Source: Eledone cirrhosa (lineage: Eukaryota). Taken from it: 64,000 nucleotides of DNA. The position numbers and the translations under genes are program-made. Of this stretch, positions 42,046-62,729 are shown in pieces; position 1 is the stretch's first letter; each line of letters begins with the position of its first letter. Under the pieces are notes generated by a model that did not search any database, had not been told where the DNA came from, and saw only the letters and a list, made by a program, of their open reading frames with translations. The stretch is from assembly GCA_964016885.1 (NCBI GenBank), contig OZ024747.1, positions 56,916,001 to 56,980,000 of the forward strand. Reading direction: 5' to 3'.

Positions 42046-42184
42046 TCATCATCATCATCATCATCATTTTACGTCCGCTTTTCCCTGCTTGCAAGGGTTG
42101 GATGGGTCCTATTCAGCACAGCATCTCTCCACTTGTCACAGTCCTATGTCATCTCCTCGGTGAGTTAGCGATCTGAGGTAGATC

Positions 42185-42290
42185 TGAGTCCCGGGTTCAA
42201 TCCGGGGTAACCACAGTAAGTAAGGTACTCAATATAGTAGTAGAGTGTAAACATCATATTTAATATAGTCCTGTAGAAGCCATATCTATA
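42185..42290. mobile_element. Internally deleted family A element
   Basis: Family A tail joined to the distal right arm (gtcctgtagaagcc). Confidence 0.8.
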
Positions 42291-43144
42291 ATAAATATTA
42301 TATATATATTTATATATATAAAATCATATATACATACTACTTAGTAACTAATATTTGCGAAAATTGAGGTGTCTCCCCTTCCATTTTACATGTCAATGAA
42401 ACTTGTTTTCTTTCTGAAGCTAACCAGACTACAAAAGTATCCATTGAGACACACCTAATCTATAATCCATCCTCCACATAACACATACCATTACAACATT
42501 ACCTCACACCATTACTACATTACTACATTATTATAACAAACTACTAGTTTAGGAAGAAGTTGCTAACAATATATAACTTACTCTTATATTCTGTGGTAAA
42601 GCCAAAAAAATATCAAACAAAAGAAAACAAAAATAGGCAAACAAACATACATGAAAAACATTAACACAGACAGAAAGGAAAAAAAAAAATTAGATAATAA
42701 TAATAATAATAACAACAAAAATAATATTAAAATAATAATAACAATAATAATAACAATGATAACAACAACAACAATAAGAATAAGAATCTAAAAATAATTG
42801 AAAGTAAATTGAAAGAAAACCAAATAGAAGTCTATTGAATGAAAGAAAGAAAGAAAGATCATCTTTGCCGAATATTCCATTTATATACTAATATTCATAG
42901 CTTTGATTTCTTACAACTTCATACATTATTTGTTTTAATGGAGACATTGAATTACTTGTGAACAATCTCTCTTTCTCATTATCTCATACTCCCCCCCCCC
43001 CCTCTCTCTCTCTCTCATTATCTCATACTTTCTCTCTCTCTCTTAGACAGAAGAATATTTATATTGAATTCATTGCATTATACATAGATGTATATATGAA
43101 TATATTAATAAAGGTATGTAAGTGTAGTGTATGAGTAAATGTGA

Positions 43145-44082: not shown

Positions 44083-44104
44083 GTGTGTATATATATGCAT
44101 TGTA

Positions 44105-44292
44105 TCCTTGGTTCAGTCGGGGGTAACAAGGTACTCAATACATAGTAGAGTATCAATTTTTAATATAGAAATGGCTTCTACAGGACTAGAACTGTTTCAT
44201 TCGAAGGACGTCGTTAAGAAAGGGCTTTCCTGGTGATTTCCTTCCTATGAAACAGTTCTAGGCCTTTAGAAGCCATTTATATATTAAAAATT
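44105..44292. mobile_element. Family A foldback element, decayed ribozyme core
   Basis: Tail plus inverted arms; core reads CTGGTGA and helix III is broken. Confidence 0.85.
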
Positions 44293-44304
44293 TATATATA
44301 TATA

Positions 44305-44730
44305 TGAACAAGACAAGGTCAGCCGACCAGACACAACCAGTCTAACCCATGCTATCGTGGAAGAACGGACATAAAACGGTGATGATGATAATGATATATA
44401 TATATATATATATCATCATCATCATCATCATTATCATCATCGTTTAACTTGCATGGGTTTGGACGGGAATTTTCCCACTTGAGGCAAGATTGGTTGTCTT
44501 GCTCGTATAGGACTGTCTGGCAGGTTTTCTACGGCTGGATGCCCTTCCTAACACCAACCACGTTCACAGTGTAGACTGGGAGGTTTTTACCGTATTACCT
44601 ACACGGCCATATTACAGCATGGACTGTGAGGTTTTTTGTCGTGACACCTACACGACCTCATTTATTTCGGACTGGATGTTGTGAGGGAGATGGGGTTATG
44701 TTAGCCATCCACGGCCGAAATAAAGAAGAG
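44305..44730. mobile_element. Two RTE 3' fragments tail-to-tail across a TA tract (+ 44305-44395, - 44412-44730)
   Basis: Match to RTE 3' UTRs at 39.0 and 57.8 kb. Confidence 0.85.
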
Positions 44731-44980: not shown

Positions 44981-45651
44981 TATATATATATATATATAAC
45001 AAATTATAAAGTAAGAAGAAATAATAGACACAGATATATACCTATTTTTTCTTCAATGTCCCGACAGTATAGTTTTGCTGGTCAGTATGCAACAATCTTA
45101 TATCATAGAGATGCAACATTGTTGTGAGGTAAGCCAGCTTTTCAAGGGAACACCTCAGGGAAAGAGCGCTTCCAGACACATCCGTAGCAAGCGAGAAAAT
45201 CTCAAAAAGGCAGAGGCAGATATTATCACATGATACACCGGTCAAGAAAGGGGACTAAATCCCTTGTAGCAGTGAAAAATATCTCAGAAGGCAGAGGGAG
45301 ATATTGATATGATACTGAGGTTACAGAGGGGTGGTAAGGTTGACTGAAAGTGGTTATAGTGTTTGGTTAAACACACACACACACACATATTAATATTTAA
45401 CAGTGCTGTGATCGAATGTAGCTTAGATAAAAACATTCACTGGCAATAACCAGCTGTGGTTGGTCATCATGTACTTTTGCATGCCATTTGAATCCTCCTA
45501 CCGAGCTACACTCTTTACTACATGTTTGACAGGTATGATGAGTAGCATATCTGACAGCAGCCTGGTAGGTAGTCAATCACATACATACATATCATGCATT
45601 GAGATTGAAGCTAGGACCCAATAATTGTAAAATGAACTTCTTAACCATGCA

Positions 45652-45692
<41 letters not shown>

Positions 45693-45895
45693 CGTTTCTG
45701 AATTTGTTTAGCAAGATTCTTTATCTGAAAACGTGTGTTGAAACCAATATTGTTATACTTTGGGAGGGTCATGTTGCCAATAGGAAACACACGCACCACT
45801 AGCTTTCACTCCAAATTTATTATAAATTAAATTTATAAATTTCCGGTTGGTTGGTTGGTTGGTTGGTTCCACAACTGGACTGTTGTTCATATATT

Positions 45896-45936
45896 GTCAA
45901 AGTTCTTTCGTCACACATTGTGACCTCTTCAGTGAC
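45896..45936 (-). ncRNA. Minimal type I hammerhead fold (family C, left arm)
   Basis: gtca-CTGAAGA-g-GTCAC-aatgt-GTGAC-GAAA-gaac-TT-tgac. Confidence 0.7.
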
Positions 45937-46006
45937 TGGGGATTCTTTTCTTGATGGCGTAGGACAGAACAAAGGAGAGGCACAAAAACAAAGAAAAGAA
46001 TCCCCA

Positions 46007-46049
46007 GTCACTGAAGAGGTCACAGAATGTGTGACGAAACAACTTTGAC
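46007..46049 (+). ncRNA. Minimal type I hammerhead fold (family C, right arm)
   Basis: gtca-CTGAAGA-g-GTCAC-agaatgt-GTGAC-GAAA-caac-TT-tgac; helix III vestigial. Confidence 0.65.
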
Positions 46050-46197
46050 AATATATGAACAACCGTCCGGTTGTGGAACCAACCAACCAACCGGAAATTT
46101 ATAAATTCTTAAATTTATAAATTTAATTTATAATAAATTGGAGTGAAAGCAACTGGTGCGTGTGTTTCTTATTGGCAACATGACCCTCCCAAAGCAT

Positions 46198-46229
<32 letters not shown>

Positions 46230-53819: not shown

Positions 53820-54385
53820 GTTGGACAACATGCTTTATGACATAGAGTAATGGCCCTTTATGATCAGAGTTCAAATCCTACTGAGGCTAAATTTGCCTTT
53901 CATCCTTACGGGGGTTGATAAAATAAAGTACTAGTAATGCACTGGGGTAATTACTGGCCTTGTGCCAAAAGTAGAAACAATTATTATTAATATTATTATT
54001 ATTAGAGGGTTGGACGCCATGCTTTCTAGCATAGTTACGTCCCTTTACGGTCTGAGTTCAAATCCCACCGAGGTTAACTTTGTCTTTCATCCTTACGGGG
54101 TCGATAAAATAAAGCACCAGTAATGTACTGGGTAATTGCTGGCCTTGTGCCAAAAGTAGAAACAATTATTATTATTTTGGCAGTATCGGTAGAGCGTCAG
54201 ACGCCATGCTTTGAAGCATAGAGTTAAGGCCTTTTAAGTTCTGTGTTCAAATCCAGCCGAGGTTAGCTTAGCCTTTCATATTTACGGAGTCAATAAAATA
54301 TAGTACCAGTAATGCACTGGGGTCAATTTAATCGACATTCCCCTTCCCAAAAATTGTTGGCCATGTGCCTAAATCAAATACCAAT
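53820..54385 (+). mobile_element. Three diverged SINE copies in tandem
   Basis: Each has gttcaaatcc...gcctttcat...aaataaagtac; joined by (ATT)n tails. Confidence 0.9.
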
Positions 54386-54904: not shown

Positions 54905-55088
54905 GGGTTCTTCTCTCAGAAGAGAGGTGCATCCTTGTGAGGTGGAGAGAATACTTTTCTGATCTCTTAAATCTGGTCACAACATCTGATGTACATGAGG
55001 AGCATCTAGGGGTGAAGAGTACCCTCTTTAACTGAGGTCACCAGTGCAATAAAGTGCTCAAATGTACTATGGCCTCTAGGGAGGATGA
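54905..55088 (+). pseudogene. RTE endonuclease-RT linker fragment
   Basis: Manual translation GVLLSEERCILVRWREYFSDLLN...TEVTSAIK. Confidence 0.7.
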
Positions 55089-55420
55089 CAAAGAGACAAT
55101 CCATGAAGTGGAAACACCCCTCCTCACCTGCTTCAAAAAAGGCCAAGGTCATTTCATCTACAGGGAAGTTGATGGCCTCAATTTTTGGGGATTCAAAAGG
55201 TATTGTGTTTATTGAATATCTTCAAAAGAGCAACACTATCAATGAAGAGTACTATGCCAACTTGCTGAGGCAATTATGAAAGGTTATCAAGACCAATGTC
55301 CAGGAAAACTGATGAAAGGGGTCTCGTTTTATCAGGGCAATGCTCCAACACTTGGTTTCAACAGCAGCTGTACATAATGAGTTGATCACCTCCCTATTCT
55401 CCTGATTTGGTCCCATCTTA
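55085..55420 (+). pseudogene. Mariner transposase fragment
   Basis: TKRQSMKWKHPSSPASKKAK...GKLMASIFGDSKGIVFIEYL...TINEEYYANLL, then YQGNAP and PYSPDLVPS remnants. Confidence 0.9.
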
Positions 55421-57189: not shown

Positions 57190-57380
57190 TTGTGGATCGG
57201 CAGTATCGGTAGAGGGTCGGACGCCATGCTTTGACGCAAAGAGTTACGGCCCTTTATGGTCTGAGTTCAAATCCTGCCGAGGTTAACTTTGCCTTTCATC
57301 CTTACGGGGTCGATGAAATAAAGTACCAGTAATGCACTGGGATAATTGCTGGCCTTGTGCCAAAAGTAGAAATAATTATT
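57190..57380 (+). mobile_element. tRNA-derived SINE
   Basis: Full copy of the main family. Confidence 0.9.
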
Positions 57381-57510: not shown

Positions 57511-57545
<35 letters not shown>

Positions 57546-57757
57546 CTTCCCATATAAGGAAGTACCCCCTTGAAAAGTTCGGCTATTTATTCACCAGGCT
57601 AAAAATTCTAATTTAGTCCAGAAATAGCCGTCGAAACGGCTTGAGCTCTGCCGTCGGGGTCATACTTTTTCTTATTTCCCACTCTACTACCCTAAGTATT
57701 GAGTACTCTGGTGCGTTATGGTCCATCTGGTTCCTTACCACAATTCCTTTGTTATAC
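57546..57757 (+). mobile_element. Hammerhead-bearing element family D in (TA)n
   Basis: Second partial copy at 9997-10086. Confidence 0.8.
57561..57665 (+). ncRNA. Type I hammerhead fold with variant core (family D)
   Basis: Helix I cccc/gggg; core TTGAAAA 57570-76; helix II cggctattt/aaatagccg; GAAA 57633-36; helix III ACGGC/GCCGT; predicted cut after GUC at 57655. Confidence 0.75.
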
Positions 57758-57771
57758 ATATATATATATAT

Positions 57772-57808
<37 letters not shown>

Positions 57809-59091
57809 ACGTTTAACGTCCGTGTTCCACGCTTGCATGGGTTTGGACGGGGGTAGTCCCACTTGAGGCAAGAGTGATTGTCTTGCTCGCGTAGGACTGT
57901 CTGGCAGGTTTTCTACAGTTGGATGCCCTTCCTAACACCAACCACATTTACAGTGTGGGTCTGGGAGGTTTTTACCGTGTTGCCTACACGGCCACATTAC
58001 AGCGTGGACTGTGTGTTTTTTTGTCTTGACACCTACACGATCTCATTTGTTTCGGCCTGGATGGTGTGGCACCAACACAACTTTACATAGAACTGGGTGG
58101 CGTGGATGGGTTGGGGGTGGTGGGACGGGGGGGGGGGGGTATTTTGTTAGCGATGCCTACTGGCTGTAGTAGGTTTTACTATGTATTTAGGTAAGGCGGG
58201 TCTTCTCTGTTACTGAGTACCGCCAAAGGTCTCGGTCCAGTGACATTGTCTTGGAGAGGTGTAAGTGTGTGAGGTCGGAGTTTATCAGCTCGTCCCAGGT
58301 TTTTCTAGGTCTGCCTATTCCGTGGCTACCGTCTATCTTTATTGCCCTGCACTTTGTTATACAGCTATCGACTTTCATGCGTGTCACGTGTCCATACCAA
58401 CGTAGCCTTCTCTCGAGTAAACAACATCTGATCCCTCTTATCTCTAATTTTTTCCTTAGTTCGTTTATGCTTTGCCGTTCACGTATATTACTGTTACACA
58501 TCCAGCGGAGCATGCAAGCTTCGTTCCTCTCTAGTCTGCGTATATCCTCTGCACACAATGCCCAGGTCTCACTGCCATGCAACATTGCTGTTCGTATGCA
58601 GGCATCGTACAACCTGCCTTTCATTTTTAGGGAGAACCCTTTAGCAGCTAATAGTGGTATAAGCTCTCTGAACTTTTTCCAACCAGTTCTGACTCTAGCT
58701 ACTGTACTTTCAGAGCACCCTCCCCCACTGCTGATTTTATCACCCAGGTAACGGAAACTGTCCACTATTTCTATAGAACCCTCTGCGCAATTGAAAGAGC
58801 TAGTATTTTGTGGGCACTTGCTGCTACTTATTGCACCAGAGCACCGGCCACATGTAAAATCTATGTTCTTAGTTAGCTTACCTGTGATCCCACTACATCT
58901 TTTATGCACCCATACTTTGCATTTAGGACATAAAATGGAGTTTCTACCTACGCCTTTCCTACACACCGAGCACGACCATTTCCCAGAAGGGACCGCCGCC
59001 TTATTTTCTTTCCTACAAACTAGAACTAGAACTTTAGTCTTAGCCAGGTTAATTTTAAGGCCTTTTGATTCTAGGCCGTGCTTCCATGTTT
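57772..59091 (-). mobile_element. Young 5'-truncated RTE LINE; open frame to 58187 with the C4HC3 finger
   Basis: WSCSVC...CPKCKVWVHKRC...CGRC, FRYLG, MLHGSETW, RLRWYGHV; (GAT)n tail. Confidence 0.95.
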
Positions 59092-59093
59092 GG

Positions 59094-59320
59094 ATAGTAA
59101 TAATAATAAATTTGAAGACTAAAATCCAAAGAGGGCTCGATAAGGATAAATATATATCAAATATATAAGAACCGTAAAGCAAATATTTATTAATATAACA
59201 GATTAAAGTTTAAGCACCCTTAATGGGATCTTCTAAAACTAACAAATGTTAGTTTCAGAAGATCCCATTAAGGGTGAAAGCAGCAATTCGTTGCTTAAAC
59301 TTTAATCTGTTATTTTAATT
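59094..59320. mobile_element. Family B foldback element, second copy (tail on left)
   Basis: 59094-59182 is the reverse complement of the 44893-44980 tail; left arm has an internal deletion. Confidence 0.85.
59251..59301 (+). ncRNA. Type I hammerhead-like fold, U4A core (family B)
   Basis: agttt-CAGAAGA-t-CCC-attaa-GGG-t-GAA-AGCAGC-aattc-GTTGCT-T-aaact. Confidence 0.7.
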
Positions 59321-61622: not shown

Positions 61623-62547
61623 CATCATCATCATCATCATCATCAACGTTTAACGTCCGTGTTCCACGCTTGCATGGGTTTGGACGGGGGTAGTCCCACT
61701 TGAGGCAAGAGTGATTGTCTTGCTCGCATAGGACTGTCTGGCAGGTTTTCTACAGTTGGATGCCCTTCCTAACACCAACCACATTTACAGTGTGGGTCTG
61801 GGAGGTTTTTACCGTGTTGCCTACACGGCCACATTACAGCGTGGACTGTGTGTTTTTTTGTCGTGACACCTACACGATCTCATTTGTTTCGGCCTCGATG
61901 GCGCGGCACCAACATAACTTTACATAGAACGGGGTGGTGTGGATCGGGTGGGGGTGGTGGTGGTGGGACGGGGTGTATTTTGTTAGAGATGCCTACTGGC
62001 TGGAGTAGGTTTTACTATATATTTAGGTAAGGCGGGTCTTCTCTGTTACTGAGTACCGCCAAAGGTCTCGGTCCAGTGACATTGTCTTGGAGAGGTGTAA
62101 GTGTGTGATGTCGGAGTTTATCAGCTCATCCCAGGTTTTTCTAGGTCTGCCTATTCCGTGACTACCGTCTATCTTTATTGCCCTGCACTTTGTTATACAG
62201 CTATCGACTTTCATGCGCATCACGTGTCCATACCAACGTAGCCTTCTCTCGAGTAAACAACATCTGATCCCTCTTATCTCTAATTTTTTCCTTAGTTCGT
62301 TTATGCTTTGCCGTTCACGTATATTACTGTTACACATCCAGCGGAGCATGCAAGCTTCGTTCCTCTCTAGTCTGCGTATATCCTCTGCACACAATGCCCA
62401 GGTCTCACTGCCATGCAGCATTGCTGTTCGTATGCAGGCATCGTACAACCTGCCTTTCATTTTTAGTGAGAACCCTTTAGCAGCTAATAGTGGTATAAGC
62501 TCTCTGAACTTTTTCCAACCAGTTCTGACTCTAGCTACAGTACTTTC

Positions 62548-62549
<2 letters not shown>
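61623..62549 (-). mobile_element. 5'-truncated RTE LINE, near-identical to 57772-58713
   Basis: ORF 62023-62460 differs from the 58-kb copy at about two residues. Confidence 0.95.
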
Positions 62550-62591
<42 letters not shown>

Positions 62592-62729
62592 TATTTTTTT
62601 ATATTATTATTCATTACATTTTTATTATATTGCATCATTCAGAATATTTTATTATATAATATATAAAAATATATTGTCTAACCCATTCTAGCGTGGAAGA
62701 TAGGCGTTAAACGATGATGGTGATGATAA

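Follow-up and report, generated by a model that had tools for sequence, protein, structure and literature searches.

The repeat unit and its surroundings

The window analysed here, a stretch of 64,000 nucleotides of Eledone cirrhosa DNA, contains at 57546-57752 (+) a repeat unit of ~205 bp that lies between two (TA)n tracts, the upstream of which (57520-57545) is the likely insertion target. Solo terminal repeats are common among Penelope-like elements, and the whole unit, judged by the (TA)n on both sides and its abundance in reads and contigs, is likely such a solo (pLTR-like) repeat of a Penelope-like retroelement. Its 3' part (57670-57752, +) ends in (TA)n and likely includes a Penelope-type tail, a concept taken from PMC8557442 and PMC11167929 (here and below, comparisons with the literature draw on parts of the cited sources); loose ends on this side enter (TA)n in two groups, at 57661-75 and 57742-49. 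The compared stretch began at 57546, and the family's 5' limit lies beyond view.

The sole other copy of the unit in the window, and the only one supported by nhmmer, lies at 9998-10086, again between (TA)n tracts. It consists of an inverted 3' end (~9998-10034, minus strand) that overlaps by 6 nt, at the joint, with a half-ribozyme in forward orientation (10029-10086). The half-ribozyme is identical to the unit at 50 of 58 positions, begins where the unit has 57618 and is without the UUGA box. Weak local alignments at 2582, 12417, 19781, 36824 and 45118-45281 found no support from nhmmer and were dismissed as chance.

To characterize the family, we compared 57546-57752 with four of 16 listed public runs at a likeness of at least 80%, copies below which fall outside the comparison, and recorded variants at a share of at least 4%; the copy tables are unphased, and statements on variants refer to the 40 of 62 variant rows listed. 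X1 comprises contigs of organism A (23,940 records) and is possibly the window's own source, X14 comprises RAD reads of organism A from a separate study (22,718 reads), and X4 and X7 represent organism B (47 records) and organism D (6 records); X7 has no depth at 57570 and was thus left out of the core comparison. Depth over helix III of the hammerhead motif described below exceeds that over its core box 60-fold in X1, 23-fold in X14 and X4, and 6.5-fold in X7, ratios that are of depth and not of copy number. Near 57610-57625 the X14 depth is distorted by AATT cuts, and the X14 read ends at 57610 and 57745, both AATT sites, were set aside as library artefacts.

All 15 joints listed (of 28) connect opposite strands, and for 12 of these 15, from contigs as well as from reads, one end falls at 57614-57621. 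This breakpoint (57614-57621, +), at which truncated and inverted copies repeatedly have their 5' limit and which the 10-kb copy shares, lies inside the helix II insert; under a uniform null, the clustering has a probability of about 1e-7 after correction. Most copies appear to begin near 57614-57621, without the 5' half. The breakpoint overlaps the initiator-like hexamer TTAGTC at 57613-18; such hexamers occupy 0.39% of window positions, three of them within the unit. As for a head-to-tail tandem arrangement, the window holds a single unit, and no same-strand back-joint is present among the 15 of 28 joints listed. A 17-base pattern gave 109 matches in metagenome contigs, all attributable to chance (longest alignment, 30 bases), and an 18-base pattern gave 0 matches in viral contigs.

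The window is rich in repeats and contains several others. A second hammerhead family is represented by two inverted copies adjoining (TA)n, at 2244-2304 (+) and 2170-2230 (-). Its core is the canonical CUGAUGA, A9 is followed by an extra base, helices I and II measure 7 and 11 bp, and helix III is short and near-palindromic; this pair looks like another Penelope-like end. Fragments of another repeat (~18910-19140, 20270-20400, 42170-42300 and 44100-44310), two of which occur as inverted pairs, have a short 3' motif in common with 57680-57707, and the 18.9-kb fragment holds CUGAUGA and GAAA boxes between which the descriptor detected no helix II. A large inverted repeat at ~45690-46200, flanked on each side by (TA)n, includes a near-perfect hairpin (45922-46021) and holds the word CUGAAGA in its arms; considered as a hammerhead, it was not matched by the descriptor. 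LINE-like pieces, among them the RVT_1 and PHD-finger matches, lie at 37578-38774 (+), 15763-16182 (+), 58190-59209 (-), 62026-62598 (-) and 1357-1575 (-); the 58-kb and 62-kb frames have a near-identical C-terminal part in common, and the 62-kb frame itself is without a Pfam match. A Transposase_1 fragment (partial DDE domain, E 4.6e-16) is found at 55016-55276 (+). Matches to the tRNA model above the Rfam gathering score at 2466-2536 (+; 37.2 bits) and 13759-13822 (-; 29.9 bits) are possibly the heads of tRNA-derived SINEs, and an abundant SINE-like repeat occurs at 3250-3888, 27206-28524, 53829-54321 and ~57200-57365, both singly and in tandem arrays of 129-249-bp units.

Anatomy and predicted fold of the hammerhead motif

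The core box at 57570-57576 (+) reads UUGAAAA (U3 U4 G5 A6 N7 A8 A9) and the second core box, at 57633-57636 (+), reads GAAA (G12 A13 A14 A15.1), the latter free of variants in the 40 of 62 variant rows listed. Helix I is formed by a 5' strand at 57558-57569 (+) and a 3' strand at 57656-57669 (+), which pair distally (57558-64 with 57663-69) and proximally (CCCC at 57566-69 with 57656-59) around an internal-loop C at 57565 and a 3-nt bulge at 57660-62. Helix II (57577-57632, +) consists of the lone pair G57577-C57632 (G10.1-C11.1), a 2x1 U loop, a 9-bp stem (57580-88 with 57622-30; pair probabilities 0.65-0.99) and a 33-nt insert, within which 57597-603 and 57612-618 form a weak inner hairpin of 7 bp (-4.0 kcal/mol). 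The base of this helix is weak: the G10.1-C11.1 pair that would close a continuous helix II can form but is isolated, with a probability of 0.08-0.10, and is followed directly by the 2x1 loop. Helix III (57636-57654, +) pairs 57636-40 with 57650-54 (probabilities 0.83-0.98) and has 5 bp, or 6 bp where 57649 is A, under a 9-nt loop that contains GAGCUC. The GUC triplet occupies 57653-57655 (+), and standard hammerhead numbering puts the predicted cut between C57655 and G57656. Both sequence and fold bear out the UUGAAAA core, 9-bp helix II stem, inner hairpin, 5-bp helix III, GUC and GAGCUC loop of the preliminary description, each at the place that it had given.

The minimum-energy fold of 57555-57675 is a hammerhead three-way junction (z-score -2.43), and 2 of 200 shuffles were equally stable. 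In both the folds and the descriptor match, three helices surround the core in the arrangement of type I, and the motif has core boxes 3-9 and 12-15.1, a Watson-Crick 3-8 pair, A15.1-U16.1 and H17, as in the published U3-A8 variant. By established hammerhead structure, U3 would pair with A8 here in place of C3-G8, with the active-site geometry kept. A descriptor that specified the core as observed, with helix II of at least 9, helix III of at least 5 and helix I of at least 4, had no match in any of 30 block-shuffled versions of the window, and a loose hammerhead descriptor matched 2 loci in the real window vs 0.1 per shuffle. Rfam returned no hammerhead match at E<=10 on 57546-57760, which may be explained by the long helix II insert together with the core swap; the 150 of 243 window-wide matches listed, mostly microRNA models on (TA)n tracts, also contain no Rfam hammerhead.

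Pair probabilities indicate that U3-A6 are paired elsewhere in ~40% of the ensemble, and we identified no helix I-II tertiary contact in the motif. Helix III is near-palindromic and so could also form a two-molecule duplex, predicted at -26.9 kcal/mol vs -13.0 kcal/mol for two hairpins. The metazoan consensus, a minimal helix III that needs a dimer and an extra base between 9 and 10.1, does not describe this motif, which is predicted to fold as a monomer with a helix III of 5-6 bp. Based on the folding and descriptor results, the motif at 57546-57757 is, as modelled, a genuine type I hammerhead fold, for which cleavage is a prediction.

The core in other copies and the register of helix I

The variable site of the core box is 57574, where C and G account for 41% and 10% of depth in X1 and for 288 and 109 of 619 reads in X14, and where both X4 contigs differ from A. 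In the U3 register (see below), 57574 is the hammerhead's free position 7. G at position 8 (57575) stays below 4% in X1, X14 and X4, because all of the places with an A>G change (one in X1, three in X14, two in X4) are accounted for by 57574, 57610 and 57611. No variant row is listed for U4, G5, A6, A8, G12-A15.1, U16.1 or C17 (23 of 28 X1 places listed). C at position 3 makes up 5.5% of X1 depth and 80 of 450 X14 reads (18%), and a change of A9 to T is seen in 106 of 621 X14 reads that derive from just 5 starts and in 0.1% of X1. At helix III, T57649A, which adds a pair, reaches 30% of X1 depth and 7226 of 13407 X14 reads. These data reveal that U3-A8 is the family state among the compared copies that carry the core, and not decay. 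That the box has one variable site is modest evidence of selection, modest because, among the listed rows, variants with a share of at least 4% in X1 affect 6 of the first 67 positions. The core of the commonest subfamily lies outside view, depth over the core being 6.5 to 60 times below that over helix III.

The preliminary description had proposed a compensated U3-A8 core, and its family-wide occurrence is borne out by the rarity of G8 and the variability of position 7 in these runs. For the same reason, the reading that it had named as its own refutation, a CUGAAGA family consensus from which this copy departed by private decay, fails when checked against reads and contigs. Covariation of positions 3 and 8 within the family, which it had suggested looking for, is not seen in the unphased tables, in which C3 copies are mostly without G8.

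The five-C run lets helix I slip by one base, so two registers are available to this copy, and both are populated: the U3 register at 0.57 and the slipped register at 0.39. When 500 nt of context are included, the preference reverses, to 0.23 for U3 and 0.49 for the slipped register. In X1, however, the fifth C is absent from 10514 of 48876 depth (21.5%, 28 contigs), as it is from 73 of 349 X14 reads, and in such four-C copies the U3 register is therefore forced. The partial copy at 10 kb, which had raised the question of register through its 'ggggtact' partner sequence, is indeed present (10029-10086, +), but that form requires C57661A, which stays below 4% in X1, X14 and X4; X1 and X4 contain no place with a C>A change, and the single one in X14 is 57608. 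At 57662, X14 varies between C (32%) and T (30%). The doubt over register is mostly removed, the reads and contigs settling it as U3.

Two further variants stand beside this comparison. In organism D (X7, one contig; loose end before 57603), G10.1 is followed by an A that would lengthen the base of helix II by one pair. A subfamily of organism A keeps GAGCUC in an altered helix III loop (1,719 reads and 120 contig records; loose ends before 57667, X1 and X14).

Element affiliation, alternative readings and significance

We propose, with a probability of about 0.68, that the unit belongs to an abundant repeat family whose type I hammerhead fold normally has U3-A8 in those compared copies that bear the core, that it probably represents the solo terminal repeat of a Penelope-like retroelement, and that its RNA is predicted to be cut after C57655. 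Two traits of such elements are found here: copies that are 5'-truncated and inverted, as seen in the joints and in the 10-kb copy, and insertion into a microsatellite with a variable 3' tail, both window copies lying in (TA)n and the 3' ends falling into two groups. Inverted 5'-truncated copies, together with a (TA)n bias of some clades, have been described for Penelope-like elements (PMC8557442), as have optional tails and microsatellite targets (PMC8557442, PMC11167929). The second hammerhead of the window, with a canonical core and an inverted arrangement at 2170-2304, also speaks for this assignment. A Pfam scan of the 124 window frames of at least 55 aa gave two RVT_1 matches, PHD fingers and a transposase piece, and no GIY-YIG or Penelope-specific match, so that membership is argued from structure. 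The two RVT_1 matches, considered as a Penelope reverse transcriptase, lie far from the motif and are read as LINE fragments.

In the RNA of the parent element, cleavage would follow C57655, with U3-A8 in place of C3-G8, and the motif might there trim precursor or tandem transcripts. Cutting could proceed either in the molecule alone, given a stable helix III, or in a dimer that pairs by way of the palindrome. Given the weak helix II base, cleavage would probably be slow or protein-assisted, and slow or protein-assisted cleavage has been reported for other Penelope hammerheads (PMC4209133, PMC11167929). This copy has no linked gene, and its run of five Cs allows helix I to slip; we regard it as probably a passive remnant.

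The U3-A8 core could also be family-wide merely by descent from a master copy whose ribozyme was dead or nearly so, the repeat having spread without cleavage. The weak helix II base, the alternative pairing of the core, the minority that tolerates C3 without G8 and the apparent loss of the 5' half from most copies are all compatible with such a history, as are published accounts that an anole element's insertion in vitro survived hammerhead mutants (PMC11167929) and that Naiads spread without canonical hammerheads (PMC8557442). We nevertheless consider it unlikely, in view of the three alleles at position 7, the sole free position of the core, the absence of variant rows at the remaining core positions named above (23 of 28 X1 places listed), and the intactness of helices I-III, to the third of which T57649A even adds a pair. 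Extremely little credence goes to the notion that the family core is a canonical CUGANGA and that this copy decayed at two positions or gained a base before the core. A C3 minority does exist, the slipped register makes up 0.39 of the ensemble and the 10-kb copy favours that register; insertions next to position 3, which bear on the slipped register, are reported to impair cleavage (PMC3088659). Yet G8 stays below 4% in three runs, the four-C copies force U3 and the 10-kb form is likewise below 4%, which largely refutes this notion for copies at 80% likeness or more.

The shared breakpoint invites a reading of another kind, in which the hammerhead is split: transcription would start near A57615, inside helix II, so that only the substrate half would lie at the RNA's 5' end, with the enzyme half, which carries U3-A8, at the 3' end, kilobases off, supplied by the downstream repeat. 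Long helices I and II and a stable helix III would then join both ends, cut both and allow circularisation, and the half-ribozyme copies would record the 5' end. Such a split accommodates the 12 of 15 listed joints that end at 57614-57621, the start of the 10-kb copy, the initiator-like TTAGTC at the breakpoint and the predicted co-folding of the two halves (-30.6 kcal/mol, vs -3.6 and -13.3 kcal/mol apart). The Penelope terminal repeat is, moreover, described as having an internal promoter (PMC2377424). On the other hand, the hexamer was spotted post hoc, its like occurs at 0.39% of window positions, a match to a downstream promoter element was not seen by eye, and the co-fold merely repeats intramolecular pairs. 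Stalling or fold-back during reverse transcription at the inner hairpin would account for the boundary just as well, X14 read ends at AATT sites distort depth near 57610-57625, and the joints may stem from few ancestral events; taken together, we regard the split hammerhead as decidedly improbable. A reading of the unit as a non-autonomous retrozyme or SINE-like repeat, and not as the end of a coding Penelope-like element, is very improbable indeed. Although the unit is short and abundant, with no Penelope-type frame found in the window, and although type I hammerheads also occur in animal retrozymes (PMC7229834), the latter are described as tandem repeats (PMC7229834; bioRxiv 10.64898/2026.07.22.740005), whereas the present copy stands singly and the other copies are inverted and truncated; according to the 2026 preprint, furthermore, animal retrozymes derive from Penelope-like repeats (bioRxiv 10.64898/2026.07.22.740005).

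The preferred assignment, a U3-A8 hammerhead in a Penelope-like terminal repeat, has close published relatives. The swap itself is already published and not new (PMC3088659, PMC4209133): Perreault et al. (2011) reported C3-G8 to U3-A8 covariation in several natural hammerheads and stated that these are active in vitro (PMC3088659), and Cervera and De la Pena (2014) found ~1,300 U3-A8 hammerhead motifs in Penelope-like elements of Schistosoma (PMC4209133). The Cercyon hammerheads of S. mansoni are likewise type I, one of them (the row S. mansoni 4) having the same seven core letters, and resemble the present motif in their palindromic helix III region, longish helix II and mostly solo or inverted dispersed copies. 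In contrast to the 5-6 bp found here, the Cercyon and metazoan rows have 0-3 extra helix III pairs; their helix II has at most ~8 bp and a short loop, in place of a 2x1 loop near the base and a 33-nt insert, and most rows have an extra base between 9 and 10.1 that is absent here. The part of that alignment compared has no cephalopod row (PMC4209133). The variants of Perreault et al. tolerate weak or mismatched helix II bases, like the weak base seen here, but come from other sources and include pseudoknot-stabilised forms, whereas no tertiary contact was identified in this motif (PMC3088659).

Fungal and protist Penelope-like hammerheads are similar to ours in a stable helix III that allows a monomer fold and in having no recognisable helix I-II tertiary motif; in the part of PMC4209133 used for comparison, no U3-A8 is described for them, and they belong to endonuclease-less telomeric elements, unlike the (TA)n-dispersed animal repeat here. 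Animal non-LTR retrozymes are also short non-coding repeats with a type I hammerhead but form tandem arrays that make circular RNAs, and the window holds no such array of this unit (PMC7229834; bioRxiv 10.64898/2026.07.22.740005). As far as sequence and predicted structure go, the motif is distinguished from the published rows compared by its 5-6-bp helix III, long interrupted helix II, lack of an extra base after A9 and shared breakpoint. A search of titles and abstracts returned no publication that describes this motif or a split hammerhead in Penelope, which does not establish absence from print.

The locus extends the known U3-A8 hammerheads of Penelope-like elements by one animal lineage and one architecture, and it is useful for the design of search descriptors, since Rfam misses the motif. 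The role of the hammerhead in Penelope-like elements has been called unclear (PMC8557442). If the breakpoint in helix II were a transcription start, the finding would matter more, as a two-part, end-joining ribozyme would give the hammerhead a testable role.
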